Positions 7,726 to 55,597 of a stretch of 64,000 nucleotides of DNA are shown piece after piece; the stretch's first letter is position 1, and every line of letters begins with the position of its first letter. The position numbers and the translations under genes were made by a program. The notes under the pieces are model-generated. The model was given only the letters and a program-made list of their open reading frames with translations, did no database searches and was not told where the DNA came from. The stretch is from Candidatus Omnitrophota bacterium (GTDB taxonomy: Bacteria; Omnitrophota; Omnitrophia; Omnitrophales; JACROU01): assembly GCA_016214265.1 (NCBI GenBank), contig JACROU010000037.1, positions 3,859-67,858 on the forward strand, read 5' to 3'.

Positions 7726-9341
7726 AAATTTTTCGAGCTCTTTTGCTATTGATTCCTGTTTGTTTCTATTCTGCTCCTGCGATTTGCGGGTCTCACAGCA
7801 ATTTTGATATTAAGTCGCTCGAAAAGATGGCGGTGCAAAGCGGGGGGCGAATCAAGCCTTTCAGCAGTTTCTCAAAAGAAGTGGTTTTGTATGTAACAGG
7901 AAAAGAACGTTTCGCAGGTAAAGATGCCAACACCCTGCTTTTGGAATGGATCGCAAAACCTGAGCAGTGGGAAGCGCAGCCTCTGATTCCGGTTTCCAAT
8001 CAGGCATTAAGGACTTTTTTGGGAATTCCTGCTGAAACGAAAAGAGTCAGCCCGCATTTTCTTTCTTCGAGCCGTGTTTTTCTCGACAGCGTGGCGCAAA
8101 TCGATGCCAAACAATCGCAAGGGGAAGTGTTAAGCACGGTTGATAAAGCGGAGATTGAGCTTTATCAAAAAATGAGTCTGTTTTATGCCTCGTGCGAAGG
8201 AAAAAACTGGTCTGTTATTCCTAATCCATCTTCCCCTCATGACAAGTGGCTCTCCATCGATATGATTAAAACAGATCAGAGAATTGGCAGTCTGGCTGTT
8301 CCGCTCAATACGATGCTGGAAAGTTACCGCTCAAATGATCCGGTGAAATTCAAACAGGCGAGCGAAGAGTTTATCAATCGGTTGGGATTACAGAATTCTT
8401 TTACGCTGGAAATTCAATACAATCACTTAAGGCCTTTCGGATGGGCTTGGCATTTGTATTTGCTGGGATTTTTGATTTTTCTGATAAATTTTGTTTTAAA
8501 GAAATCGTTTTTATCATGGATTGGGGTGGGCAGCGTTATTTTGGGATTTCTGCTGCACACTTATGGATTTGTTCTGCGGTGCATTATTTCGGGCAGGCCT
8601 CCTGTTAGCAACATGTACGAGTCTGTTATCTGGGTTTCGTGGGCGGCGGTTTTGTTTGCGGTTATCCTTTTCTTCGTTTACCGCTCAACGTATGTCACTC
8701 TGGCAGCGTCGGCGATTGCTGCAGTCGGCTTAATTCTGGCAGATAGTTTGCCGGCGGTTTTGGATCCTTCGATCTCGCCTCTGGAACCGGTTTTAAGAAA
8801 TAATTTTTGGCTGACAATTCATGTTCTGACGATCACGTTAAGTTACGGCGCTTTTGCTCTGGCTCTAGCTATTGCACATATTTCTCTCCTCATGCATGTG
8901 TTTCAGACGAAAAATGAAAATCTTCTTCGCATTATCACCGAATTTCTTTACCGGGCGTTGCAAATCGGTGTTGTTCTTTTGGCGGCGGGAACTATTTTGG
9001 GTGGTGTTTGGGCAAATTACTCTTGGGGCCGGTTTTGGGGCTGGGATCCCAAAGAAACTTGGGCCTTAATCGCTCTTCTCGGATATTTGGCTATTCTTCA
9101 TTGCCGTTATGTCGGCTGGATCGGTCCGTTTGGTCTTGCTGTTGGCGCCTCAGTTGCATTTCTGGGCGTTCTGATGGCATGGTACGGTGTCAACTTTGTT
9201 CTTGCCGCGGGACTTCACAGTTATGGTTTTGCCGGCGGCGGACTTCCTTATGTCGGCGCTTTCGTCATCGCCGATTTATTGCTGGTGGCCTTACTCTCTT
9301 TTGTTTATTGGAAAAAGACGCAAATCAAAACTTCTCACTAA
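7722..9341 (+). CDS. ccsA: Cytochrome c biogenesis protein CcsA/ResC with ~240-aa N-terminal periplasmic extension
   Basis: Trp-rich heme-handling motif WGRFWGWDPKETWAL and multi-TM CcsA core. Start overlaps the ccsB stop. Confidence 0.8.
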   Translation: MKIFRALLLLIPVCFYSAPAICGSHSNFDIKSLEKMAVQSGGRIKPFSSFSKEVVLYVTGKERFAGKDANTLLLEWIAKPEQWEAQPLIPVSNQALRTFLGIPAETKRVSPHFLSSSRVFLDSVAQIDAKQSQGEVLSTVDKAEIELYQKMSLFYASCEGKNWSVIPNPSSPHDKWLSIDMIKTDQRIGSLAVPLNTMLESYRSNDPVKFKQASEEFINRLGLQNSFTLEIQYNHLRPFGWAWHLYLLGFLIFLINFVLKKSFLSWIGVGSVILGFLLHTYGFVLRCIISGRPPVSNMYESVIWVSWAAVLFAVILFFVYRSTYVTLAASAIAAVGLILADSLPAVLDPSISPLEPVLRNNFWLTIHVLTITLSYGAFALALAIAHISLLMHVFQTKNENLLRIITEFLYRALQIGVVLLAAGTILGGVWANYSWGRFWGWDPKETWALIALLGYLAILHCRYVGWIGPFGLAVGASVAFLGVLMAWYGVNFVLAAGLHSYGFAGGGLPYVGAFVIADLLLVALLSFVYWKKTQIKTSH

Positions 9342-9363
9342 AATCCAAGGTGATGTTTTGCCT

Positions 9364-10269
9364 ATGAGATGTATTGCTCCAATATCGGCACGAATTAGCG
9401 TTGTTGCCGCTTTTTTGCTTCTGCTTTTCGTCGGCGTACAAAAATTTGTGTGGGCGGTAGAAGCGCCTAAAAATAATTCGTGCGTCACGTGTCACATGGA
9501 TATTTGGGAAGAAACGAAAGACAGCATTCACTCTAGTGAGGGGATTACCTGCAACAATTGTCACGGCGGTGATCCGGCCAAAAAAGAAAAAGAACTCGCC
9601 AAAGCACCCGCCACGGGTTATATCGGAATTCCTGACAAAAAACAGATCGTGAATATGTGCGGTACCTGTCACGCCAACGTTGAGGTGATGAATTTTTATG
9701 GTATTCGTACCGATCAGCTGGCCCGGTATAAAACCAGTATGCATGGAAAAAAACTATTAATTGACGGTGATACACACGTTGCTGCTTGTGCGGATTGCCA
9801 TGGCTATCACAATATTCTTGGTATTGGCGACCCGCAAAGTTCCGTTTATCCTACAAATGTTCCAAAGACATGCAATAAGTGTCATGGCAATGAGAAATTG
9901 ATGGGGCGTTACCATCTTCCGTCAGACATCTTCAAACAATATGAAAATAGTGCCCACGGCGTTGCTTTACTCGTGAAAAACGATCTTTCTTCGGCAAACT
10001 GTGTTAGCTGTCACGGAAGTCACGGAGCCATGCCTCCTGGAGTGAAAGAAGTCAGTGACACTTGCGGCAAATGTCACATTAACGAAAAAAAATTCTTTTT
10101 GACCAGCGAACACGCCAAGTTGGCTGAAGGCAGCAAGTTTTCAGAATGTATATCCTGCCATGGTTTTCATGGCATTCAACACCCCACAATTCAATTGTTC
10201 AGTACGGCTTGCTCGAAATGTCATAATGTGAAAAGCTTGGCGGCGCAAAGAGCGCTTTCAATGCAATAA
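9364..10269 (+). CDS. Nonaheme c-type cytochrome, N-terminally membrane-anchored
   Basis: Nine CxxCH motifs (CVTCH, CNNCH, CGTCH, CADCH, CNKCH, CVSCH, CGKCH, CISCH, CSKCH). Likely ATG at 9364 (MRCIAPISARISVVAAFLLLLFVG). The 9187 ORF start is an upstream extension overlapping ccsA. Confidence 0.8.
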   Translation: MRCIAPISARISVVAAFLLLLFVGVQKFVWAVEAPKNNSCVTCHMDIWEETKDSIHSSEGITCNNCHGGDPAKKEKELAKAPATGYIGIPDKKQIVNMCGTCHANVEVMNFYGIRTDQLARYKTSMHGKKLLIDGDTHVAACADCHGYHNILGIGDPQSSVYPTNVPKTCNKCHGNEKLMGRYHLPSDIFKQYENSAHGVALLVKNDLSSANCVSCHGSHGAMPPGVKEVSDTCGKCHINEKKFFLTSEHAKLAEGSKFSECISCHGFHGIQHPTIQLFSTACSKCHNVKSLAAQRALSMQ

Positions 10270-40916: not shown

Positions 40917-41012
40917 TTAATCCAGCTGCTCGTCAATCGCATACTTTAAAAGGGCGGGGTCATTTACTTGGCTCCGCCCTTTTTTTTCGAACAATTTCAA
41001 CAGGAGACGTTC

Positions 41013-41633
41013 ATGAACCGCCAGGTTTCCACCGACAAAGATTCTCTCAGAGAAAAAACGCTCGAAGTGACCAAGCGCCACAAGGCCTCATGGGTTGAGC
41101 TGGGCCAATATCTTTATTCGATTTATCACGACAAAATGTACAAAGATTGGGGATTCTTGTCTTTCGAGGCATATTGCTGGAAAGAGCTGCGTCTGAAACA
41201 GCCGACGGCGATGAAGCTTCTGAAATCCTATTATTTTCTTGAGAAGGAAGAGCCCAAGTTTTTGAACGAAGCCAGTTCCCCGGAAACGGCGCCGCGGGAA
41301 ATTCCAAATTATGAGTCGGTGAATTTGTTGAGGCTCGCCAAAGAAAATAAAAGTGTGACTGAAAGCGATTACCGGGATTTGCGCGAAGTGGTGATCGAGA
41401 AAGCCAGTGAGCCGAAAGAGGTGCGGGCTCAGGTGAAAAAAATCATTGCCGAGCAGGAAGAAGAAAAAAATCCCGCCGAGGTTCGTAAATCACGAAGAAA
41501 TTCTGCGATCAAGAGACTGATCACAGTTTTGGCCAGCGCCAAGCGGCAGTTGGCCAGCGAGAATCTCATTCCCGAACATCTCGTCAAACAAATTGACGCT
41601 TTGACGGCAAAGCTCGAAGATCAGCTGGAATAA
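41013..41633 (+). CDS. Hypothetical protein (charged, helical), unknown function
   Basis: ORF with internal ATG at 41013 preceded by AGGAG. No recognisable motif. Confidence 0.35.
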   Translation: MNRQVSTDKDSLREKTLEVTKRHKASWVELGQYLYSIYHDKMYKDWGFLSFEAYCWKELRLKQPTAMKLLKSYYFLEKEEPKFLNEASSPETAPREIPNYESVNLLRLAKENKSVTESDYRDLREVVIEKASEPKEVRAQVKKIIAEQEEEKNPAEVRKSRRNSAIKRLITVLASAKRQLASENLIPEHLVKQIDALTAKLEDQLE

Positions 41634-42383: not shown

Positions 42384-43703
42384 ATGCACCTTTTATCCAG
42401 TGGAGAAAAGATGATTCTGCGCGCGTTGTCCCACCAAAATTATCGCCTATTTTTCAGCGGGCAATCAGTGTCGCTTATCGGCACATGGATATCCCGGGTG
42501 GCGATGAGCTGGCTGGTGTACCGTTTGACGGATTCAGCGTTTGTTCTTGGTGTGGTCGGATTTGCCAATCAAATCCCCACATTTTTTCTGGTGCCGTTTG
42601 CCGGTGTGCTCGTGGATCGTTGGAGCCGGCACCGGATGCTGGTGATGACACATTCGCTTCTGATGGCGCATTCATTTATCTTGGCGGTTCTGGCACTCAC
42701 GCACACTATTCAAGTTTGGCAAATTATTTTACTTAGCATTCTTCAGGGAATTATTCACTCGTTTGAAATCCCGGCCCGGCAGTCTTTCGTTTCAGAAATG
42801 GTGGGGAAAAAAGAAGATTTGGCCAATGCCATTGCGCTTAACTCCTCGCTGTTCAACGCGACGCGTCTGGTCGGTCCCGCTTTGGCCGGAGTTTTAATTT
42901 CCGCCTTGGGTGAGGGGATGTGTTTTTTGCTGGACGGAATTAGTTATATCGCAGTGATCGTTTCATTGCTTTCCATGACGATTATTCCAAGACCCATAAA
43001 AAATATAAAAACCAATGTATTTCAGGGAATCAAAGAAGGAATCGATTTTGCTTTTGGTTTTGCGCCGGTTCGAGCCATCCTTCTTCTGGTTGCGTTGGCC
43101 AGCCTGACGGGAATTTCGTACACTGTATTATTGCCGGTGATCGCCCGGGACGTGCTGCACGGAGACGCGCATATTCTGGGGGTGCTTACGTCTGTTGCGG
43201 GATTTGGTGCGTTGATGGGCGCGCTTTATCTGGCTTCTCGAAAATCGGTACGGGGACTTGGACAATACATCGCGATTTCTTCGGGGCTTGCCGGTCTGGG
43301 ACTTATCTTTTTTGCTCTGTCACATGCGCTGTGGTTTTCGCTTGTGACCATTTTTGTGGTAGCTTTTGGTTTTATGATTCAGCTGGCGTCTTCGAATACG
43401 GTGATACAAACAGTCGTCGATGAAGATAAACACGGCCGTGTTCTCAGTCTTTATATTTTGGCGCTTATGGGGATGTCCCCTTTTGGTAATTTACTTGCGG
43501 GTTGGTTAGCGTATAAAATCGGGGCTGGAAATACCTTGATCATCGGCGGTATTTCCTGTATTACCGGAGCTTTTCTGTTTGCGATAAAATTACCCGAGTT
43601 CCGGGAAAAAATCCGGCCGATTTATATCAAAAAAGGAATTATTCCCGAGGTGGCAAAAGGAATTCAGGAAGCCGAGAAAGCAGCTGAGTTGACTCAGGAT
43701 TAA
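42384..43703 (+). CDS. MFS transporter (EntS-like family)
   Basis: 12 predicted TM. MFS loop motifs. Confidence 0.75.
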   Translation: MHLLSSGEKMILRALSHQNYRLFFSGQSVSLIGTWISRVAMSWLVYRLTDSAFVLGVVGFANQIPTFFLVPFAGVLVDRWSRHRMLVMTHSLLMAHSFILAVLALTHTIQVWQIILLSILQGIIHSFEIPARQSFVSEMVGKKEDLANAIALNSSLFNATRLVGPALAGVLISALGEGMCFLLDGISYIAVIVSLLSMTIIPRPIKNIKTNVFQGIKEGIDFAFGFAPVRAILLLVALASLTGISYTVLLPVIARDVLHGDAHILGVLTSVAGFGALMGALYLASRKSVRGLGQYIAISSGLAGLGLIFFALSHALWFSLVTIFVVAFGFMIQLASSNTVIQTVVDEDKHGRVLSLYILALMGMSPFGNLLAGWLAYKIGAGNTLIIGGISCITGAFLFAIKLPEFREKIRPIYIKKGIIPEVAKGIQEAEKAAELTQD

Positions 43704-43754
43704 ATTTGGTGAGAAGGTATCTGATACCTTCTTCGTAAAAAAAGGAGAATCTTA

Positions 43755-44069
43755 ATGAAAAAAATAATGATGGTATTTGTGTTGTCGGGTTTTTTGTTTA
43801 ATTTTTCGGGTTTGGCGCTGGCGGGTGATGCCTGTTGTCCTCAAGGTGCCAACCCCGGCACGGCTCAAAGCGCTCCAACAAAGGAGTGGGTTCTTCAGAA
43901 GCGACACGACCGGCTTGAAAGGAAAATTGCTCAAGCGAAAGAACGTAGAGAGAAACTGGTGGCTGACAAAGCTTCACAAGAGAAACTGGCGAAAATTGAT
44001 GCCCGGATCTCCAAGCTCCAAACCAGCCTGGATGAGGTAAATGCCAAGCTGGCAACGCCTCAGCAATAA
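43755..44069 (+). CDS. Small secreted coiled-coil protein with Cys-Cys near the N-terminus
   Basis: GGAG RBS. Signal peptide. KERREKLVADKASQEKLAKIDARISKLQ heptads. Confidence 0.4.
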   Translation: MKKIMMVFVLSGFLFNFSGLALAGDACCPQGANPGTAQSAPTKEWVLQKRHDRLERKIAQAKERREKLVADKASQEKLAKIDARISKLQTSLDEVNAKLATPQQ

Positions 44070-44083
44070 TCCTCTTTCCCAAA

Positions 44084-44126
44084 AAGGTAGCGGCCTACCT
44101 TGTTCTCCAAGGTAGGCCGCTACCTT
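44084..44126 (+). terminator. Perfect 18-bp stem / 7-nt loop hairpin downstream of 43755..44069
   Basis: AAGGTAGCGGCCTACCTT-gttctcc-AAGGTAGGCCGCTACCTT. No U-tract, so it may act as a stability element rather than a classic intrinsic terminator. Confidence 0.4.
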
Positions 44127-44217
44127 TCTTCCAACGTTAACACCTATTAACCTCATTTTAAGATTGTCTTTATATCTTCCTGCGAGAGTTCTAACGAATA
44201 GCGAAGGGAGAAGTAAG

Positions 44218-45081
44218 ATGAGAGCATCGATTCGTGGTAATGAATGGAAACAAGCGGCCGGAAAAAGAAGAATACATTTCTTGATTGCCGGTTTGTTGGC
44301 TTTCGTTTTTGTAGCGGTATTTCTGATTCCTGAAAAATTCATTCAAGCGCAATCCATATCAATTCTTCCGGGGATGAAACAATCTTCGGGCATAGTAGAT
44401 AAGGTTGTTCCCCAGGAAAGAAATCCAAAATTTTTGACTCAACGGGTTCAAGAGCGGACATCGGCGTTATCTCCTCGTTCAAAGGTCTCTAACGAGATCG
44501 CAACAACTTCAGTTTCTATTTTGAATGAGGCTGTGACAATAAAGCGGGAGGAGGGCCTGCTTCAGAAGTCATTGACTGATGTCCGCTCTAAATTTATTCC
44601 ATCTCAAGTTCCAGTCGCTCCTCGCGTTAAAGAAATTCCGAAAGCGGTTGAGACGAACACGATTGTCATTCCTCAAAAACTTGAGGTGTTGTCAGCGGCT
44701 CTCATCAATCAAAACATCAAAGGCCTGGCTGGATTAAAGCTGGATCAATTCATGAGTGACTATCTTGCCGCCATTGGTGTTGAGTTGGGCGCCTGGATGG
44801 AAGACAACGGAAAAGAGCAATATTTTCTTGATTTGTTCAAAATCAAAGGACCTTGGGTTCTGGTGTTTTTGGCGATGTCGCCGACCAGCATGCACGAATA
44901 TATGCAGGATCTGGATTTGCCGAGTTCGGTAGGGGATATTCTCGAAGCCAAAAAACTCCGGGTCAATATGACTATTGAACAGCACGGCCGCGACATTCTG
45001 GTGGAAACTCAGGGTGCCTATGACATGTGGATTACCTTCCGAATCAATGAAAACAATCAGGTATCTGTCGAGAAAGAGTAA
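44218..45081 (+). CDS. Hypothetical N-terminally membrane-anchored protein
   Basis: GGGAGAAG RBS. Single TM (IHFLIAGLLAFVFVAVFLI). No known motifs. Confidence 0.4.
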   Translation: MRASIRGNEWKQAAGKRRIHFLIAGLLAFVFVAVFLIPEKFIQAQSISILPGMKQSSGIVDKVVPQERNPKFLTQRVQERTSALSPRSKVSNEIATTSVSILNEAVTIKREEGLLQKSLTDVRSKFIPSQVPVAPRVKEIPKAVETNTIVIPQKLEVLSAALINQNIKGLAGLKLDQFMSDYLAAIGVELGAWMEDNGKEQYFLDLFKIKGPWVLVFLAMSPTSMHEYMQDLDLPSSVGDILEAKKLRVNMTIEQHGRDILVETQGAYDMWITFRINENNQVSVEKE

Positions 45082-45148
45082 GGCAACGCGGCACTTTTTG
45101 AAGAAAAGGTATCCGGTACCTGCTAAAATACCCGCCAATTAATGCACT

Positions 45149-45802
45149 ATGAATCAACAATCCATTCTTAACAAAACGGTTGAGCACGTAAAGAAAACTT
45201 TGTCAGGCGAAGGGTCCGGCCATGACTGGTGGCATATTTACCGCGTGTGGCAGAATGCCCGTGAGATTGGTGTGCGCGAGAAGGCCGATATGTTCGTCGT
45301 CGAGTTGGCCGCGCTCTTACACGATATTGCCGATTGGAAATTTCATGGCGGCGATGATTCGAAAGGCCCGAAGGCCGCGCGCGAATGGATGATTTCCTGC
45401 GGGGTGGATGAAATAACTATTCAGCATGTTTGCGAAATTATTTCCGAGATATCCTTCAAAGGCGCTGGTGTTGCTTCCAAAATCAACACCAAAGAGGGCA
45501 TGGTGGTTCAGGACGCCGATCGTCTTGACGCGATTGGCGCCATCGGTATTGCCCGCACGTTTGCTTACGGCGGTCACAAAGGTCGGGAAATGTACAACCC
45601 CGAGATTAAGCCAGAACAGCATGATACATTTGATCAGTACAAAAAAAATTCCGGTCCTACCGTTAATCATTTTTATGAAAAACTTTTGCTTCTCAAAGAT
45701 CGAATGAATACCCGTTCGGCGCGCGAGCTTGCCGAAAGCCGGCATCGGTTTATGGAGGAATTCTTGGTTCGTTTTTACGCAGAATGGGAAGGTCGGCAGT
45801 GA
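45149..45802 (+). CDS. HD-domain metal-dependent phosphohydrolase
   Basis: H...HD...D motif (WWHIYRVW...LLHDIAD...DADRLDA). Confidence 0.75.
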   Translation: MNQQSILNKTVEHVKKTLSGEGSGHDWWHIYRVWQNAREIGVREKADMFVVELAALLHDIADWKFHGGDDSKGPKAAREWMISCGVDEITIQHVCEIISEISFKGAGVASKINTKEGMVVQDADRLDAIGAIGIARTFAYGGHKGREMYNPEIKPEQHDTFDQYKKNSGPTVNHFYEKLLLLKDRMNTRSARELAESRHRFMEEFLVRFYAEWEGRQ

Positions 45803-47367
45803 ATCGAAAAGTCTATCTGATCGCCGCTTTGTTGATTGTTCTTGCCGGCGCCTTGATTAATTTTAAGGTTCTGCGCGGGGGGCAAAGCCTTAGCCCGGAA
45901 GTCACGCGGCATTTGTGGCGTGTCAAAATTATCGCTAATATTACCGGCAAAGGCGAGCATGCACGGGTACGTTTGACACTGCCCAAAAATAATGCGCATC
46001 AGAAAATCTATAACGAGCATTTCGAAAACGATGAAATGGTTTTTTACGTGCGGACTCAGGTGAAGTCTGGAAATCGCATCGGCACTTGGCGTGCGGAAAT
46101 TTTGGACGGCTCCAAATCCCTTCAGTACACATTCTCGGCGCAGCTCAGAAGAATCCAGTACGAAATTCCTGAAAATCTAACGCTCCCCGAAAATCCCGAA
46201 AAAGCATATCCGCCCGAGATGAAACAGTGGCTGGATCCCTCAAAGTTTATTCAATCAAAAGATCTTCTGATTCAGGATCATTTAAAAGCAATCATCGGCC
46301 ATGATAAAAATGTTGCCCAGGACATACGGAAAATTTTTAATTTTGTGCATGGCGATATCCGGTATCAGACGGAAAAGAAAAGCAAAGACGCGAAGGAAAC
46401 CTTGCTTAATCTGGAGGCCAATTGCGGCGGCAAGGCCAGGCTTTTTGCTGCGCTGGCTCAGGCGGCAGGAATTCCCACGCGCCTTGTCGGCGGCATGATT
46501 ATGACGCCCAGCATCAAAACGATTACGCATGTGTGGGTGGAAAGTTATATCGGCGGGAAATGGATTCCCTTCGATGTGGTAAATAATTATTTTGCGTACA
46601 TGCCCAATCATTATGTGGAGCTTTATCGCGGCGATTATCCGCTTTTCAAACACGTGGGACTTTTGAAATTCGATTATTATTTTGTGATCACGAAAGAGCG
46701 GATCCCGCCGCTTGATAATCCCTGGTCGCTTTATGTCCTGCCGATTCATTTTCAGAAAATGATCAAAGTGCTGCTTCTGATTCCCCTGGGTGCTGTGATC
46801 GTGGCGTTATTCCGGACGATCGTTGGAATTCCCACTTTCGGTACGTTTGCGCCGGTTCTGCTGGCGCTTGCGTTTCGCGAAGTGTCGCTTGGCGTGGGGC
46901 TGCTTTTTCTGGCGATGGTTGTTGCGATCGGATGCGCGTTCCGGAATTTGCTGGACTGGCTGAAAATTTTGGTGATACCGCGGCTTTCGATTGTGGTGAC
47001 ACTCGTAATTATGGTAGTGCTTGCGTCGCTGGTGCTTTTCTATCAGATCGGTCAGCAGAGGGTGCTTTACGTGACGCTCTTTCCGATGATTATCATCACC
47101 TGGACCATCGAACGGTTTTCCGTGCTTCAGATTGAAGACGGCACGCGAGCGGCCATTCAAAGTGCCGTCGGCACCGCGATTGTTGCGACCGCCGCCTATT
47201 TTGTGATGGGCATTCGCACGGTGCGGATTTATCTGTTTGCGTTTCCCGAACTTCTTTTGGTGATTATGGCGGTGCTGTTAATTTTGGGCCGCTACACAGG
47301 AATCCGCTTTTCGGAACTCTATCGTTTCCGGGAGTTTTACAATATTAGCGGCAGAAAAAAACTATGA
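45784..47367 (+). CDS. Transglutaminase-like domain fused to C-terminal 7-TM domain (7TM-TGase family)
   Basis: Cys-His-Asp candidate triad (EANCGGKARLF ... HVWVE ... D) followed by seven hydrophobic helices. Start overlaps the HD-gene end. Confidence 0.65.
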   Translation: MGRSAVNRKVYLIAALLIVLAGALINFKVLRGGQSLSPEVTRHLWRVKIIANITGKGEHARVRLTLPKNNAHQKIYNEHFENDEMVFYVRTQVKSGNRIGTWRAEILDGSKSLQYTFSAQLRRIQYEIPENLTLPENPEKAYPPEMKQWLDPSKFIQSKDLLIQDHLKAIIGHDKNVAQDIRKIFNFVHGDIRYQTEKKSKDAKETLLNLEANCGGKARLFAALAQAAGIPTRLVGGMIMTPSIKTITHVWVESYIGGKWIPFDVVNNYFAYMPNHYVELYRGDYPLFKHVGLLKFDYYFVITKERIPPLDNPWSLYVLPIHFQKMIKVLLLIPLGAVIVALFRTIVGIPTFGTFAPVLLALAFREVSLGVGLLFLAMVVAIGCAFRNLLDWLKILVIPRLSIVVTLVIMVVLASLVLFYQIGQQRVLYVTLFPMIIITWTIERFSVLQIEDGTRAAIQSAVGTAIVATAAYFVMGIRTVRIYLFAFPELLLVIMAVLLILGRYTGIRFSELYRFREFYNISGRKKL

Positions 47368-48308
47368 TCCAGTTTCTTCGAACGTTTTATCAAGCGGGTC
47401 TCCTTGGCATGAACCGGCGAAACGGCAATTACACCCTCGTGCGCAACCCAAGAAAACTTTATCCTTTTGTGGATGATAAGCTGAAAACTAAGGAGTTGCT
47501 GATCGCCAATGGCATTGCCTCGCCGGAGCTGTATTTCACCATCGAGCGCAATTCTGAATTAAATAACCTGAGCCGGCTGAACATGTTCAAAGATTTTGTG
47601 ATCAAACCAGCCCGTGGGGCGGCGGGCCGCGGTATTTTTGTGATTGTCGATAAAGTCGGCGATTACTGGAAAAAGGCAAGCGGCGAGCTGGTATCGATGG
47701 AAGACATTGAGTATCACGTCACCAACATTATTGCCGGACTGTATTCGCTGGGTGGCGTGAGCGACCGGGCGTTTGTGGAATATCGGGTGCAAAGTCATGA
47801 AGTGTTTCTTCCCGTCACCTTTCAAGGCGTTCCAGATATTCGGATGATTCTTTATCGCGGGGTGCCCGTGATGTCGATGCTACGTCTGCCGACGAAAGAA
47901 TCTGGCGGCCGGGCGAATTTGCATCAGGGTGCCGTGGGCGCTGGTGTTGACATGCTGGACGGCGTGACGCTTGGCGGTGTTTATCACGATCAATTGATTG
48001 AACATCATCCGGATACGAATGTTTCTATCCGGGGAATTAAAATTCCTTTTTGGCCGGAGCTTCTGGAAGCGGCAGCGAAAATTTATGATGTGTTCAAACT
48101 GGGATATGTCGGCGTTGATTTTGTCATTGATCAAGAGCTGGGCCCGCTGATTCTTGAGCTGAACGCCCGGCCGGGCCTTAATATTCAGCTTGCCAACCGG
48201 ACAGGGCTGCTGCCCCGGCTTAATGCGATCGATCGATGGGGTGGTTTAGTCGAAAATCTGGCTTGGGAAAAGAGAATGGAAATCTCACGAAAAGTGATTA
48301 AGCTGTAA
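47364..48308 (+). CDS. Alpha-L-glutamate ligase-like ATP-grasp protein (RimK-related)
   Basis: ATP-grasp features. Overlaps the stop of the 7TM-TGase gene. This is the known pairing of these two families. Confidence 0.65.
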
Positions 48309-48339
48309 GGGTGTCACCAGTCAAAAGGAGAAGCTATTC

Positions 48340-50346
<2,007 letters not shown>

Positions 50347-50374
50347 AATAATAGTAAGAAGAGAGGTTGGTACG

Positions 50375-51049
50375 ATGGCGCTGAAATTAAAAGATATTCC
50401 CTTATTTCATGGTCTTTCTGAAAGCGAACTTGCAGTAGTAAGACTCTGCTTGAAAGAGAAAACGTTCCAAAAAGGCGAGCTTCTATTTAATGAAGGGAAA
50501 TCCTGCGAGCGGGTGTTCATCGTTCAGCAGGGTCGCGTGAAACTGTACCGGATCGCCTCGTCGGGCCGCGAGCAAATTCTTGAAACCTTGGGGCCCGGTG
50601 ATACATGCGCCTGCAATCCCGGCGCCCAGGTTTGGTGTTGTACGACAACTGCGGAAGCGGTGACGCCGTGCAAGGTGTGGTTTTTGTCGCGGGAAGATTA
50701 TGTGAAAATGGTGCAAACCAATTCAAAAGTCAGCCAGGCCCTCAACCGGCTTTTTGCGGACCGTCTGAAAGCCTTCAGTTCACTTATCGAGGAAGTTTCG
50801 CTTAAAGACGTCAAAAAACGCCTCATCAAATTTCTTTTAGAGATGCACGCTGAGCGGAAAAGAAAATACGGGCAGGGTGACGCGATGTTTATTCCTTTCA
50901 CGCGCGAAGAAATTGCCCAAAGAATCGGTTCGGCCCGTGAGACAGTGGTGCGTTATCTTATGCAGTTGAAACGTTGTAAGCTCATCGATTTAAAACCGCA
51001 TCAAATTATCATTTGCGATCAGCACGGCCTCGAAAAACTCCTTCAGTAA
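50375..51049 (+). CDS. Crp/Fnr-family transcriptional regulator (cNMP-binding + C-terminal HTH)
   Basis: LFHGLSESELAVV...FNEGKSCERVFIVQQGRVKLY cNMP fold. C-terminal HTH REEIAQRIGSARETVVRYL. Confidence 0.8.
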   Translation: MALKLKDIPLFHGLSESELAVVRLCLKEKTFQKGELLFNEGKSCERVFIVQQGRVKLYRIASSGREQILETLGPGDTCACNPGAQVWCCTTTAEAVTPCKVWFLSREDYVKMVQTNSKVSQALNRLFADRLKAFSSLIEEVSLKDVKKRLIKFLLEMHAERKRKYGQGDAMFIPFTREEIAQRIGSARETVVRYLMQLKRCKLIDLKPHQIIICDQHGLEKLLQ

Positions 51050-51202
51050 TTGTCTTTTTTTTCGCATAACCAGTTCTGAAGGAGAAATCTCGCCGTGAGT
51101 TCTCCTTCGGAGTTGCTCGCAAGCCTTAGATTGTGACCCTGGTCACTGCTTAAAACGAAAGCTTTGTGTATCTTTGCCACATCAAAACAGGAGGTTGTTA
51201 TG

Positions 51203-51373
51203 GCTACTCCAAAAATCCAGAAATCGATGCCTCAAACAAAAAAAGAAAAGAAGATCTCTCGCGAAGAAATTGCCCGGCTGGCCTTCGAGCTCTACGAGAA
51301 AGACGGCAGGGAAGAGGGTAAGGATCTTGAGCATTGGTTTGAAGCCGAAAGGATTTTGAGGTCGCATCAATAA
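51203..51373 (+). CDS. DUF2934-like small protein
   Basis: AGGAGG RBS. EEIARLAFELYEKDGREEGKDLEHWFEAERIL matches the DUF2934 signature. Confidence 0.4.
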   Translation, partial: ATPKIQKSMPQTKKEKKISREEIARLAFELYEKDGREEGKDLEHWFEAERILRSHQ

Positions 51374-51382
51374 GCAAATAAC

Positions 51383-52171
51383 ATGACCATTCCGCTTCAA
51401 AATTCGGTTGTCTATGGCCCCATACAATCCCGCCGACTGGGGAATTCTTTGGGCATCAATGTGCTTCCGACTGACATTAAATTTTGCCTTTCAAGCTGCA
51501 TCTATTGCCAATATGGCTGGACTGACTTGAGCGCGATGCAAAAAGTGAAACTTCATCCTGCCACAGAGCTGGTGAAGGAAATCGAGGACAGTTTTAAAAA
51601 AATATTTTCAACCGGCACCATCATTGACTCCATCACTTTTTCCGGCAACGGTGAGTCCACGCTGCATCCCGAATTCGGAACTTTAGTCCGGGAAGTTAAG
51701 CGATTGCGCAATCACTATTTTCCTGCCATCCCCGTTTCAATCCTTTCAGATTCTTCCCGGGTTTATCTTCCCGAAGTGCGTGAAGCCCTGGAGAAATTGG
51801 ACGAGCGGTATATGAAACTAGACACGGGCGATCAGGAAATGTATCAGAAAATAAACAATCCGGTTGTAAAGGCGGATTGGAACCGGATCGTCGACGGGCT
51901 CAGCCGTCTTTCTCAGGTGACATTGCAGAGTCTTTTTCTATCAGAGCCTGTAGATAATTCAAGCGGGGAAGCTCTTAACCGCTGGCTTGCAGCGCTCGCA
52001 CGTATTCATCCTGTCGGCCTTCAAATTTATACTGTATACCGTGATACGGCGGATCCGAAAGTAAAGTCGGTGACGTCGAAACGGCTGTCTGAAATCGCGC
52101 ATTTGGCCTGTCAAGTAACGGACTTGAGTACGGTGACTGCGGTCACAGATACTTTTTTGGAATTGATGTAG
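51383..52171 (+). CDS. Radical SAM domain protein
   Basis: CLSSCIYCQ (Cx3Cx2C) preceded by a GPIQSRRLGNSLGIN block. Confidence 0.55.
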   Translation: MTIPLQNSVVYGPIQSRRLGNSLGINVLPTDIKFCLSSCIYCQYGWTDLSAMQKVKLHPATELVKEIEDSFKKIFSTGTIIDSITFSGNGESTLHPEFGTLVREVKRLRNHYFPAIPVSILSDSSRVYLPEVREALEKLDERYMKLDTGDQEMYQKINNPVVKADWNRIVDGLSRLSQVTLQSLFLSEPVDNSSGEALNRWLAALARIHPVGLQIYTVYRDTADPKVKSVTSKRLSEIAHLACQVTDLSTVTAVTDTFLELM

Positions 52172-52195
52172 CTTTTTTCCGAGAGGTCGGACGAG

Positions 52196-52720
52196 ATGGC
52201 GCACAAGAAAAAAGAATTTAATGTGGTTCAATTACTCGAAAAAAGTCACGATGAGACTTTTCAGAGGACCGATCAATTTCGTGATCTGTTAATCAATCTG
52301 CGTTACGAAGGCAAGTTGTCACTGGGCAAAAACCTAAAGCAGGCCGAAGATGTGCTTAAGTTTTTTAGCCAGGAGCATGCCGGGCATATGCAGTTCGAAG
52401 AAGAAATCCTTTTCCCTTATTTAAAATCTCACGTGCCGAAACTTGAGCCGGTAATTTATCTTCTTCATGCGGAACATTTGGATTTTAAGAACAACCTGAA
52501 AAATTTTGAGAATCTCATCGGTGAGCTTTCCAAAGAAAGGCAGGAAAGCGACCGCGCCGTCATTTTTGAAAAAATCAGAGAAACAGGGGCTTATCTTATT
52601 TTCCTTCTCAGAAGTCACAATCAGTCTGAAAGTGAAAGCGTGTATAAAGTGATCGATCGTGAACTCCATGACGATGAGAAGGAAGAGCTTGCTGAAAAAA
52701 TAGAGAAGTTTCTGCCGTAA
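52196..52720 (+). CDS. Hemerythrin-like (HHE cation-binding) domain protein
   Basis: H/E-rich pairs (EHAGHMQFEEEILFPYL; HAEHLDF). Paralogous to the C-terminus of 14705..15628. Confidence 0.55.
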   Translation: MAHKKKEFNVVQLLEKSHDETFQRTDQFRDLLINLRYEGKLSLGKNLKQAEDVLKFFSQEHAGHMQFEEEILFPYLKSHVPKLEPVIYLLHAEHLDFKNNLKNFENLIGELSKERQESDRAVIFEKIRETGAYLIFLLRSHNQSESESVYKVIDRELHDDEKEELAEKIEKFLP

Positions 52721-52738
52721 CCGGAAAAACCCAAATCC

Positions 52739-52981
52739 ATGAAGCAAACTTACAAATGGCTGCCCGTAATAAAAAAAGAAAATTGTACGGGCTGTGGTTT
52801 ATGCGTTGAAGCATGTACGCCAAAATGTTTAGAGGTTGTCGATGGTGTTGTTGTTCTCACGCTTCCGATTCTTTGCGGAAGTGAGGAGCATTGCATTTCA
52901 CCTTGTAACTATGAAGCCATTGAGATGAAATGGGTGCCTGCGCCCGGACGTGACTATATCGGTTTGTGGCACGAAAAATAG
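52739..52981 (+). CDS. Small ferredoxin-like [4Fe-4S] protein
   Basis: CTGCGLCVEACTP Cx2Cx2Cx3CP motif plus additional Cys. Confidence 0.5.
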   Translation: MKQTYKWLPVIKKENCTGCGLCVEACTPKCLEVVDGVVVLTLPILCGSEEHCISPCNYEAIEMKWVPAPGRDYIGLWHEK

Positions 52982-53011
52982 TTTTCCCTCCATATTTATA
53001 TTCTGACATTA

Positions 53012-53027
53012 TGTGATCACCGTCACA
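53012..53027. promoter_or_regulatory. CRP-family-like site TGTGATCACCGTCACA upstream of rrf2-nosZ
   Basis: TGTGA-N6-TCACA. Extended match ATGTGANNNNCGTCACAGTTTT with the site at 13799. About 95 bp upstream of the Rrf2 start. Confidence 0.4.
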
Positions 53028-53121
53028 GTTTTTGATCTTCTTGAAATGTATGATAATAATGTGGATGTTAGTATCCATAATTTGAACGTTTATTCGTTTC
53101 TGTCTGAAGGGAATCTGAATT

Positions 53122-53589
53122 ATGTTCCGCCTGTATTCAAAAGGCTGTGAGTACGTAATCCGCGCATTGGCGCTTGTGAATGCCTCAAAAGAGGGGCGGT
53201 GTTTTTCTGTTAAGGATATTTGCAGAAAGGCCCGGTTGCCGGAATGGTATACCCGGAAGGTTTTTCAATCGTTGGTTCGAAACGGTTATTTAGAGGCTTC
53301 GCGCGGCCCGGGGGGTGGTTACACGTTAAAAGTCCACCCCAGTAAAATTTCGCTGTTAAATATGATCCGCGCAGTTGATGGTAAGGATGTTTTAGATCAA
53401 TGCATGATGAGTTCGGGAAAATGCAAGAACAAGAAATCCTGTGTGATGCATAACAAGTGGATTAGGATAAAAGAAAGTGTGGTTCGGGAATTAAAGTCGG
53501 TTACGGTTCAAGATCTAATGGATTTAACTTCTGGCAGAAGCAAACATGTTTCAACATTAAAAAGGAGGCATGAATCAAATGGGCATTAA
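53122..53589 (+). CDS. Rrf2-family transcriptional regulator (NsrR/IscR-like, 3-Cys)
   Basis: N-terminal wHTH (CEYVIRALALV...VKDICRKARLPEWYTRKVFQSLVRNGYLEASRGPGGGYTL) plus three C-terminal Cys. Confidence 0.8.
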   Translation: MFRLYSKGCEYVIRALALVNASKEGRCFSVKDICRKARLPEWYTRKVFQSLVRNGYLEASRGPGGGYTLKVHPSKISLLNMIRAVDGKDVLDQCMMSSGKCKNKKSCVMHNKWIRIKESVVRELKSVTVQDLMDLTSGRSKHVSTLKRRHESNGH

Positions 53590-55597
53590 AAACTGGAAAT
53601 GGTTTGCCGTGCTGGTCGCGGTGATTTTTGCGGGAGGTTTGTTTTTTCTCGGCAAGCCCGCAATGAAGGAGGTCAGCGCCGTGCAGGCGCCTGGACTCCC
53701 TGCGGACTCCATGCAGGTTATCCAAAAGAGAGGATTGAGCCCAGATGATGTTTTTGGCGCTCTGTCAACGTATGTGCCAACCGGGAAATATGATGAATAT
53801 TATATGTTTGCGTCGGGTGGGCATGGCGGACAAGTTTTGGTGATAGGCCTTCCTTCGATGAGACTGCTTCGAGTGATTGCCGTGTTTGAGCCGGAGTCAT
53901 GGCAGGGATACGGATTTGGCGTGAAAGAAAATCCGCTGGTCAATAAAACAGAAACTATTCCGGGACAGAAACCCAAAGATCTGTCTTGGGCGGATACGCA
54001 TCATCCCGGCCTCAGTGAAACAGACGGAAAATATGACGGCCAGTTTTTGTTTATCGGGGATAAAGCAAATGGCCGTTTAGCGGTAATTGATTTACGGGAT
54101 TTTGAAACGAAGCAGATTGTGGATAATCCCGTAGTCAATAACGATCACGGAGCCGCGTTTGTCACGCCAAACACGGAATATGTGGTGGAGTCGACGCAAT
54201 TTTCAGTTCCGCTCGGAGGCAAATACGCGCCGATTTCAGATTATCAAAAAGAATATCGCGGATTGGCTACGTTCTGGAAATTCGACCGGGCCAAAGGCCG
54301 TATTGATGGGGAAAAATCATTCGCGCTTGAATTGCCTCCGTACTGGCAGGATTTAGCCGATGCGGGAAAAGGGCCCAGCGACGGGTTTGTGTTCATCAAC
54401 TCGTTTAATACAGAAATGGCGACAGGGGGCATTGAGGAAGGAAATCCTCCGTTTGAGGCCGGCGTGTCTCAGCGGGATATGGATTATCTGCACGTGATTA
54501 ATTGGAAGAAAGCGGAAGAAGTAGTGCAGCAGGGCAAGTTCAAAGTCGTGAACGGGATGAAAGTGATTCCGCTCGATGTTTCCGCTGCGGAAGGGCTTCT
54601 TTATTTTATTCCCGAGCCGAAGAGTCCGCACGGAGTCGACATCACACCGAGCGGGAAGCATATCGTGATTGGCGGCAAGTTGGATCCGCACGTGACGATT
54701 TACGCCATCGATTTGATCCAGCAGGCGATTGAGAAAAAAGATTATGAGGGCACGGATCCGTACGGCATTCCGATTCTGAGATTCGATGCCGTGAAAAAAG
54801 CGCAGGTCGAATTGGGGTTGGGACCGCTACACACGCAGTTTGACAATCACGGTTACGCGTACACCAGCTTGTTTCTGGAAAGCGCCGTTGCCCGATGGAC
54901 GTTGGGCGACGATAAGTTTCAAGCCCCGGAAAAACCCTGGACGTTGGTGAGCAAAATCCCCGTTTCGTACAACGTGGGGCATATCGCTGTGGCTCAGGGC
55001 GACACAGTGGAGCCGGACGGGAATTATTTGGTCGCGCTCAACAAATGGTCGGTGGACCGGTTTCCCAACATCGGACCGCTTTTGCCGCAGAATCTTCAGC
55101 TGATCGACATCGCGCAAACCGGAGATCACATGAAGCTTCTGTACGATATGCCGATCGGGATGGCGGAGCCGCATTACGCTCAAATTGTCAGGGCCGACAA
55201 AATCAAAGCCTGGGAAGTGTATCCGGAAGTTGGGTGGAACGCGGAGACGCAATCGAAGAGTAATACCGCGGCTACTGAAAGCAAGGTCGTGCGGAGTGGC
55301 AACAATGTGGAAATTTTTATGACCGCTTTGCGCAGTCACTTTGATCCGGAACATATTAAGGTCAAACAGGGCGATCACGTGACGCTTCACATCACCAACA
55401 TGGAAAGAACCCGCGACGCCACCCACGGTTTCAACATTTCGAATTATAACATTGCGGCCAGTATGGAACCGGGTGAGACTGTGGATATTGATTTTATCGC
55501 CGATAAACCGGGCGTGTTTCCGTATTACTGCCTGGAGTTTTGTTCTGCGCTGCATCTGGAAATGATGGGTTATCTGATGGTAGAACCTGCGGAATAG
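53570..55597 (+). CDS. nosZ: Nitrous-oxide reductase NosZ with Sec-type signal (clade II-like); ATG at 53579 is the better-spaced start
   Basis: Seven-bladed propeller CuZ-domain His-containing blocks. C-terminal CuA motif CLEFCSALHLEMMGY. No RR motif in the signal peptide. Confidence 0.92.
   Translation: MNQMGIKNWKWFAVLVAVIFAGGLFFLGKPAMKEVSAVQAPGLPADSMQVIQKRGLSPDDVFGALSTYVPTGKYDEYYMFASGGHGGQVLVIGLPSMRLLRVIAVFEPESWQGYGFGVKENPLVNKTETIPGQKPKDLSWADTHHPGLSETDGKYDGQFLFIGDKANGRLAVIDLRDFETKQIVDNPVVNNDHGAAFVTPNTEYVVESTQFSVPLGGKYAPISDYQKEYRGLATFWKFDRAKGRIDGEKSFALELPPYWQDLADAGKGPSDGFVFINSFNTEMATGGIEEGNPPFEAGVSQRDMDYLHVINWKKAEEVVQQGKFKVVNGMKVIPLDVSAAEGLLYFIPEPKSPHGVDITPSGKHIVIGGKLDPHVTIYAIDLIQQAIEKKDYEGTDPYGIPILRFDAVKKAQVELGLGPLHTQFDNHGYAYTSLFLESAVARWTLGDDKFQAPEKPWTLVSKIPVSYNVGHIAVAQGDTVEPDGNYLVALNKWSVDRFPNIGPLLPQNLQLIDIAQTGDHMKLLYDMPIGMAEPHYAQIVRADKIKAWEVYPEVGWNAETQSKSNTAATESKVVRSGNNVEIFMTALRSHFDPEHIKVKQGDHVTLHITNMERTRDATHGFNISNYNIAASMEPGETVDIDFIADKPGVFPYYCLEFCSALHLEMMGYLMVEPAE

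Follow-up and report, generated by a model that had tools for sequence, protein, structure and literature searches.

The closest described counterpart of the locus analysed here is the rloABC operon of Pseudomonas aeruginosa, an envelope-stress system described in 2025 by Lormand et al. in mBio (PMC12239564). Its products include a secreted retropepsin (RloA), able to cleave polyglutamate in vitro, and an ATP-grasp protein of the cytosol (RloC). A triple rloA mutant dies under hypo-osmotic conditions, and loss of either rloB or rloC suppresses this lethality; RloB and RloC also influence cell shape, biofilm formation, osmotic tolerance, and susceptibility to antibiotics (PMC12239564). Two unlinked, redundant rloA paralogues are also present in P. 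aeruginosa, and the rloB and rloC orthologues of Vibrio cholerae are strongly induced by VxrAB (PMC12239564). The related locus described here lies in a 64,000-nucleotide (nt) stretch of DNA from a Candidatus Omnitrophota bacterium (contig JACROU010000037.1; hereafter, the window) and pairs a gene for a membrane protein, in which a transglutaminase (TGase)-like domain is fused to a seven-transmembrane (7TM) domain, with a gene for an ATP-grasp ligase. Its TGase-like domain retains the Cys-His-Asp triad that RloB has lost, and no rloA gene lies beside it. We put the probability at roughly 0.5 that this pair is a two-gene envelope module of the RloB/RloC kind, in which the periplasmic domain would itself perform, in cis, the trimming for which rloABC uses RloA in trans, with an overlapping HD-domain gene upstream lying outside the system.

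Gene layout and pairing

Three open reading frames (ORFs) follow one another on the + strand, encoding an HD-domain protein (45149-45802, 217 amino acids (aa)), the TGase-7TM protein (45784-47367, 527 aa), and the ATP-grasp ligase (47364-48308, 314 aa). The start of the TGase-7TM gene can be read in two ways, either at the first ATG (45784), which gives a 19-nt overlap with the HD stop, or at a GTG (45799) that falls within a GTGA start/stop overlap and has GGAAGG 6 nt upstream. The public record of the contig uses the GTG start, giving a 522-aa protein (P0001), and our residue numbering follows this form. The features of the pair, all on the + strand, are as follows.

45799..47367, +, TGase-7TM membrane protein, 522 aa (527 aa from ATG 45784), from Pfam, the public call, and an AlphaFold2 model
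45817..45873, +, N-terminal transmembrane anchor, aa 7-25, after MNRK (hydropathy peak 2.47; helix 3-26 in the model)
45874..46734, +, predicted periplasmic ectodomain, aa 26-312, a beta-sandwich and then a transglutaminase-like cysteine-protease core (Foldseek and phmmer to 3isr)
46423..46425, +, Cys209 codon TGC, putative nucleophile (Cys in 79/82 genome-locus homologues)
46528..46530, +, His244 codon CAT (His in 79/82 genome-locus homologues)
46573..46575, +, Asp259 codon GAT (Asp in 68/82 and Cys in 12/82 genome-locus homologues)
46738..47289, +, 7TM domain, aa 314-497 (PF14402, E 2.7e-65)
47290..47364, +, conserved basic cytosolic C-terminal helix, aa 498-522 (invariant residues; 7 K/R in 25 residues)
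47364..47367, +, ATGA start/stop overlap from the TGase-7TM gene to the ATP-grasp gene (ATG at 47364, upstream TGA at 47365-47367)
47364..48308, +, RloC-type ATP-grasp ligase, 314 aa, alpha-L-glutamate ligase-like (TIGR02291, PF14397)

An initial annotation, made from the sequence alone, had described overlapping start and stop codons as linking the three genes, and both overlaps (GTGA or 19 nt, and ATGA) are indeed present; the -3 spacing of the TGase-7TM/ATP-grasp junction also recurs in many related loci. Since 4-base overlaps between unrelated genes are common in the genomes of relatives (there are several among the gene calls of locus L004), a start/stop overlap alone is weak evidence of a functional link. 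The ATP-grasp gene directly follows the TGase-7TM gene in every related locus whose contig continues, and this pairing is far beyond chance. That annotation was right to call the pairing recurrent, and its description of the system as functionally uncharacterised has been overtaken by the work on rloABC (PMC12239564).

Domains and fold of the membrane protein

The membrane protein matched 7TM_transglut (PF14402; E 2.7e-65, 220.8 bits, profile positions 43-247 of 248) and Transglut_core (PF01841; E 2.9e-20, 73 bits vs. a gathering cutoff of 23), and showed a weak, partial match to Transglut_i_TM (PF14400; E 4.4e-7, 30 bits, only positions 1-97 of 161). With these matches to the first two families, the proposed fusion of a transglutaminase-like domain to seven transmembrane helices is borne out, and the concern that the protein might lack a TGase core can be set aside. 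The triad, which had been singled out for checking, is intact, with Cys209, His244, and Asp259 aligning to identical residues of the solved cysteine-protease-like structure 3isr (phmmer). Cys209 is the sole cysteine of the ectodomain, which we assign as a putative catalytic cysteine-protease-like domain of the PF01841 superfamily.

An AlphaFold2 model of the protein (predicted local distance difference test score of 85.3, 70 homologues in the alignment) matched 3isr over the whole ectodomain in Foldseek (E 7.5e-17, TM(target) score of 0.70, ~287 columns), at a sequence identity of only ~20%. Further matches were TglA, the eukaryotic transglutaminases TG2, TG3, and FXIII, the CPR-C4 protease, the PeiP endoisopeptidase, and LapG, as well as 3kd4. 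The bacterial transglutaminase-like cysteine proteases (3isr from Cytophaga hutchinsonii, LapG, PeiP/PeiW, and CPR-C4) share the beta-sandwich plus TGase core fold and the Cys-His-Asp triad with the window domain, which, unlike them, is fused to a membrane anchor on one side and to a 7TM domain on the other and is tied genetically to an ATP-grasp ligase. A hydrolase of this kind that acts in the periplasm is already known in LapG. The 7TM part of the model found no match among PDB structures.

We place the ectodomain outside the cytoplasm because of the 7 K/R in the 25 residues of the C-terminal tail and the helix count, so that it is predicted to be periplasmic, in the topology also predicted for RloB. 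In the 7TM domain, G343, T346, G348-F350, P352, E438, R439, and E446 are invariant, and the G-x-P-T-F-G-T-F-x-P motif and the E-R-F...E-D-G loop, likewise invariant, are common to RloB. The C-terminal helix is also conserved (G497, G501, R503, E506, R509, and F510 invariant; tail motif GRYTGxRxxExxRF), making it a candidate docking site for the ligase.

Comparison with rloABC

Orthologues of rloABC also occur in Vibrio, Aeromonas, Legionella, Methylophaga, and others. As in the window, a 7TM_transglut protein is directly followed there by a TIGR02291/PF14397 ATP-grasp, usually with overlapping codons, and the 7TM motifs and predicted topology are common to both. The window protein is 29% identical to RloB overall and ~42% identical in the 7TM part. 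The two differ in the ectodomain, where RloB has lost the Cys, His, and Asp and carries a full PF14400 without PF01841, whereas the window protein has both the triad and PF01841. All of the 120 top matches to an RloB profile lacked PF01841; among 117 RloB-type sequences, none had a Cys at the nucleophile position and 115 had no ectodomain Cys at all. Against the NCBIfam RloB model (NF052267), the window protein scored 207.8 bits, below the cutoff of 900; the model is a narrow one of the "exception" type, and therefore even the Legionella RloB scores just 472. Many RloB-type public records (e.g., P0137, P0170, P0175, and P0205) carry the name "gonadoliberin III", evidently a propagated annotation error.

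Every RloB-type locus examined has rloA (a PF05618 retropepsin gene) directly upstream, and none lies beside the window pair or any of its relatives; the hosts also differ, being Gammaproteobacteria for rloABC and Omnitrophota for the window. Judged on its genes, the window locus would function as Rlo systems do, yet it does not qualify as an rloABC operon, lacking both the "inactive" feature of RloB and the adjacent rloA. A plasmid collection, in which rloABC examples were solely from Legionella and Aeromonas, supplied RloA, RloB, and RloC references; a metagenome scan with an RloB alignment, which gave poor patterns, returned only four Aeromonas-like loci, and further RloB-type loci were taken from the contigs of protein-search hits.

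Triad state and adjacent peptidase genes

To place the window protein among its relatives, we used 79 genome loci with relatives of the membrane protein (82 homologues), together with the contigs of close database hits. The triad reads Cys-His-Asp in 67 of the 82 genome-locus homologues and Cys-His-Cys in 12, and the Cys-His-Asp form was also found in 106/118 database homologues, including every sequence of at least 46% identity. All 96 homologues of 46-71% identity retain it, as do most of the more distant ones. On a neighbour-joining tree, the dead-triad sequences fall into three separate clades, of which one, with triads of S-H/R-C, is sister to the intact Omnitrophota clade. Within the Rlo family, the intact-triad members form a widespread branch, of which the window locus is typical.

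In each of the three dead-triad clades, the loci examined have a peptidase gene beside the membrane-protein gene. The RloB-type loci have the PF05618 gene immediately upstream in 6/6 cases examined. In the second group (P0103, P0110, P0113, and L031; triads VHD, PRD, AGD, and PTD), an S41 (PDZ) peptidase gene is immediately upstream of the dead TGase-7TM gene in 4/4 (L095:2759-11678, L096:3-7276, L031:4854-13654, and L098:2884-7587). In the three of these whose contig continues, the order is S41, dead TGase-7TM, ATP-grasp, a solo TGase-like lipoprotein that is also triad-less, and Peptidase_C25, while L098 ends inside the gene after the TGase-7TM gene and only its S41 part is visible. In the third group (P0099-P0101; S-H/R-C, Ser standing in for the nucleophile), the membrane-protein gene shares its start with an overlapping Peptidase_C25 gene, as seen in the P0101 locus, where the latter encodes a 772-aa protein (L097:247-4109).

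The intact-triad loci gave a different picture. We built a profile hidden Markov model of RloA from six rloABC loci, which matched 8/8 control loci, one of them outside the training set. When the 64-kb window and 83 related loci were translated in all six frames and searched with this model, it returned nothing at E<=10, and single-sequence searches agreed; no RloA was found within +/-8 kb in the 79 genome loci, which span many phyla. Homologues of the C25 or S41 peptidases of the dead groups were likewise found beside none of the intact-triad genes (the window and ~80 relatives), and a Pfam survey of 69 immediate upstream neighbours of intact-type genes showed only TPR/BamD-like proteins to be strongly recurrent and no peptidase. 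Overall, a peptidase gene adjoins 11/11 dead-triad loci (six PF05618, four S41, and one C25 alone) vs. 0/~80 intact ones, with the eleven loci amounting to about three independent events. A TGase-like domain that is either intact without a nearby peptidase gene or, in three separate clades, dead with one suggests that an extracytoplasmic peptide-cleaving step is obligatory in the pathway.

This pattern bears on what RloB and RloC do, and the intact-triad form offers an experimentally simpler two-gene version in which to work out the product and mechanism. The PF01841 plus PF14402 architecture is already visible in databases, and the Pfam wording ("usually fused to an inactive transglutaminase") permits it. 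In our literature search, the scope of which did not extend to the 2009 survey by Iyer et al., we found no paper on the intact-triad, protease-free form or on the anticorrelation between triad and peptidase. That survey (Mol Biosyst) is reportedly the original comparative description of these amidoligase systems.

The 12 homologues with Cys-His-Cys (L035, L037, L048, L049, L055, L062, L065, L066, L069, L070, L077, and L078; genes mostly near 8001-9560 of their loci) come from Zixibacteria, Ignavibacteriales, Acidobacteriota, Pirellulales, Polyangiales, and FCPU426, and none has an adjacent peptidase gene.

The ATP-grasp ligase

The ligase matched TIGR02291 (NCBIfam) at 385.5 bits vs. a curated cutoff of 314.2, over protein residues 4-291, and ATPgrasp_ST (PF14397) with an E of 1.3e-82, and it is 50% identical over 296 aa to RloC of a Legionella rloABC operon. 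RimK proper (TIGR00768) scored 49.2 bits vs. a cutoff of 143.4. The initial annotation of a RimK-related, alpha-L-glutamate-ligase-like protein is therefore upheld by the TIGR02291 match, and the possibility it had left open, that this is an ordinary RimK, is not. The metal- and ATP-binding residues of the ATP-grasp fold are present (D252, E265, and N267, invariant in 21 family members, in a stretch that aligns to RimK), and the glutamate-ligase name of TIGR02291 is to be taken as one given by homology alone.

When the family profile was compared with solved structures, RimK came first, followed by cyanophycin synthetase and the tubulin polyglutamylases (TTLL), all of which ligate acidic amino acids. 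RimK, the S6 poly-alpha-L-glutamate ligase, belongs to the same broad ATP-grasp branch (best structure matches 7qys, 4iwx, and 5zct), and the combination of a ligase with a peptidase is common to both systems, RimB being the retropepsin partner of RimK. In contrast, the RimK system is cytosolic, has no membrane partner, and includes an N-terminal domain absent from the window ligase. Query residue 30 aligns to RimK residue 89 in these matches, leaving the ~88-residue N-terminal domain of RimK without a counterpart; a short conserved segment (residues 1-29, window 47364-47450) takes its place, and N17, R19, N20, N28, and R30 are invariant.

The HD-domain gene

The gene upstream of the pair and its junction lie on the same strand.

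45149..45802, +, HD-domain phosphohydrolase, YpgQ/YedJ type, 217 aa (PF01966, PDB relatives, HD motifs)
45799..45802, +, GTGA start/stop overlap from the HD gene to the TGase-7TM gene (sequence inspection)

Its identification as an HD-domain hydrolase holds, with a PF01966 match (E 3.5e-10) and end-to-end PDB alignments to 3djb (2.9e-65, residues 2-215), 3dto, 5dqv (B. subtilis YpgQ; 4.8e-35), and 3gw7. The protein resembles the HD nucleotide pyrophosphohydrolases YpgQ (B. subtilis) and YedJ (E. coli) over its full length and has intact HD motifs (H29, H58-D59, and D122-x3-D126), but it scored 100.2 bits against the YedJ equivalog model (NF007515; cutoff 286), and we regard it as a YpgQ/YedJ family member and predicted nucleotide phosphohydrolase rather than a YedJ orthologue. 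This family has no known link to Rlo-type systems.

Across the 79 genome loci and the close-hit contigs (phmmer, E<1e-5), just two species-level loci of ~80 have an HD homologue next to the pair, namely the window and one relative, L002/L003 (2/~21 in the Omnitrophota clade and 0/~58 elsewhere). This relative is 65% identical and shares the whole block of CSD, unknown, GDSL, MFS, 305-aa, and HD genes, so the linkage in the two represents a single evolutionary event. In L004 (62% identity), an ArsB/CitMHS transporter is found upstream of the pair in place of the HD gene, and L006 has the same downstream acetyl-CoA synthetase as the window and no HD gene. The HD gene is probably co-transcribed with the pair. 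As its homologue adjoins the pair only in these two loci with a shared block, and overlaps are commonplace, it appears to be a lineage-specific neighbour and not a system component. The view that the HD protein is an atypical partner standing in for the usual protease thus did not survive comparison, being protease-free is the rule for the intact-triad subfamily, and the case warns that an overlapping neighbour is not a system component without comparative support.

Proposed mechanism and alternative explanations

In the mechanism we propose, window 45799-48308 would encode an inner-membrane protein (N-in anchor, periplasmic TGase-like domain, 7TM domain, and basic tail) and a translationally coupled cytosolic ligase. 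Working on the cytosolic side of the 7TM domain and driven by ATP, the ligase would assemble an acidic product of the Glu type, either a peptide or a peptide tail. It probably depends on its membrane partner, since it lacks the N-terminal substrate (acceptor-binding) domain of RimK, and it may dock on the invariant basic tail. The 7TM domain, with its GxPTFGTFxP and ERF...EDG motifs, would then move the product outward across the inner membrane, where the intact Cys-His-Asp domain would trim or release it in cis. In lineages with a dead domain, the trimming would be done in trans by the secreted RloA or by the C25 or S41 peptidases. We infer a Glu-type substrate because the nearest solved relatives of the ligase are RimK, cyanophycin synthetase, and the TTLL polyglutamylases. 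That RloB and RloC make or expose a Glu-rich extracytoplasmic product in need of trimming is suggested by the rescue of rloA loss by rloB or rloC loss, together with the cleavage of polyglutamate by RloA.

Several points weigh against this reading. An intact triad is in itself no proof of catalysis, transport through the 7TM domain is assumed and that domain has no match among solved structures, and the ligase product is a guess, RloC and RloB homologues having no known biochemical activity. The correlation between peptidase and triad rests on three independent losses, and its counts are not phylogeny-corrected. Intact loci were searched directly for RloA, C25, and S41 alone, and the upstream Pfam survey would hide singleton peptidases; the search covered 64 kb of the window genome, where an unlinked RloA-like protease could exist, as with the rloA paralogues of P. 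aeruginosa. Lastly, the HD gene is translationally coupled to the pair here, and a lineage-specific role is possible.

Some of these points lead to alternatives. The intact domain may be a true transglutaminase or transpeptidase that covalently links what is exported to an amine of the envelope (in peptidoglycan or on a lipoprotein Lys, for example), which we rate as unlikely, if the most serious of the competing explanations. Its fold and triad are those of real transglutaminases (TG2, TG3, and FXIII among the Foldseek matches), its acyl-enzyme chemistry permits both outcomes, and cell shape and cell-wall antibiotics feature among the Rlo mutant phenotypes (PMC12239564). We nonetheless favour hydrolysis over transamidation because the genes replacing the dead domain in all three lineages encode hydrolases (retropepsin, C25, and S41), not ligases, and because the closest structures are putative proteases or isopeptidases (3isr, 3kd4, CPR-C4, PeiP, and LapG). 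We think it rather improbable that the pair works exactly as RloB and RloC do, with the TGase-like domain serving for binding or as a scaffold, its triad retained but unused, and an RloA-like protease encoded elsewhere. Such an arrangement would fit the unlinked, redundant rloA paralogues of P. aeruginosa (PMC12239564) and the 64 kb of the genome in view, but it sits poorly with a triad kept across all 96 homologues of 46-71% identity and most of the more distant ones, which points to purifying selection on catalysis, with a Cys that is lost exactly where a peptidase gene adjoins (11/11), and with no RloA within +/-8 kb across the 79 loci.

It is very unlikely that the HD phosphohydrolase is a genuine third component in place of the protease, acting either on an intermediate that carries a phosphoryl or nucleotidyl group, which it would hydrolyse, or on nucleotide levels and thereby on the ligase. 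The overlap between the HD stop and the TGase-7TM start, along with the HD, TGase-7TM, ATP-grasp order retained in L002/L003, speaks for it, but the HD gene is missing beside the pair in L004, L006, and all 77 other genome loci, its single HD-bearing relative reflects one event, and overlaps are frequent in these genomes. Moreover, the HD protein is cytosolic, whereas RloA acts outside the cytoplasm, and its closest relatives are stand-alone proteins. We give the least credence of all to a module that modifies a cell-surface polysaccharide, with the ATP-grasp as a sugar amidoligase and not a peptide maker. The Pfam label of PF14397 ("sugar-transfer associated ATP-grasp") would suit this idea, as would the flanking TPR/BamD-like and secreted ~404-aa proteins in Proteobacteria and Nitrospirota, which resemble exopolymer secretion systems; the genes conserved around the pair include none for a glycosyltransferase or for sugar activation, however, the nearest solved relatives of the ligase all ligate amino acids, and RloA cleaves polyglutamate (PMC12239564).

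A broader extension of our two-gene envelope module, which we regard as doubtful, is that the intact-triad TGase-7TM protein and its ATP-grasp lacking the RimK N-terminal domain represent the ancestral, self-contained Rlo form. Such a form would polymerise one amino acid (probably glutamate, in alpha linkage) at the membrane, thread it through the 7TM domain, and cut or release it with its own cysteine protease. With the flanking TPR/BamD-like and secreted proteins of diderms, it would constitute a synthase-dependent secretion system for a non-ribosomal polyamino-acid exopolymer, and rloABC would be derived, its cutting handed to a secreted retropepsin.

Neighbouring genes and other observations

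The intact-type pair often sits in a five-gene block comprising a TPR/BamD-like protein, the TGase-7TM protein, the ATP-grasp, a ~630-aa TPR protein, and a ~404-aa secreted protein (L022:2459-10075 and ~50 other loci within L025-L084), in Proteobacteria, Nitrospirota, Campylobacterota, and others. Its layout resembles TPR-plus-porin exopolymer secretion systems. The ~404-aa secreted protein had no match in Pfam or, by sequence, in the PDB, and its sole NCBIfam hit was far below the cutoff. Sulfurimonadaceae loci contain a second TGase-7TM paralogue ~3 kb downstream of the first (L067:12423-14024 and L072:12424-14025), and in two loci of an Omnitrophota-like clade, the ATP-grasp gene is followed directly by one for a Transglut_core2 plus TPR protein (L014:6014-6955, labelled Planctomycetia, and L016:2657-3697).

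The initial annotation had also proposed looking for a small precursor-peptide ORF nearby. None was found, there being no room beside the three-gene block (gaps of 67 nt and 31 nt) and no small ORF conserved across related loci. A 104-aa secreted ORF (43755-44069) and the 305-aa ORF were considered as the precursor and rejected, neither being conserved beyond the closest relative. We similarly rejected the acetyl-CoA synthetase gene 31 nt downstream as a member of the unit; it is also downstream in L006 and absent from the other loci. A scan of 43600-50600 for promoters and terminators gave counts not above those of shuffled sequence, and an Rfam scan of the whole window matched no family.

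Elsewhere in the window, the 305-aa ORF (44164-45081) and a 221-aa ORF (40968-41633) matched no Pfam family; the former had no NCBIfam match either, and its homologues among the examined loci were only in L002/L003. Further downstream (50324-55597), genes for Rrf2, 4Fe-4S, hemerythrin, radical-SAM, and Crp/Fnr regulator proteins precede a gene for nitrous-oxide reductase (NosZ, with nos_propeller and cupredoxin; 53570-55597), and this gene content suggests a capacity for N2O respiration in this Omnitrophota genome.

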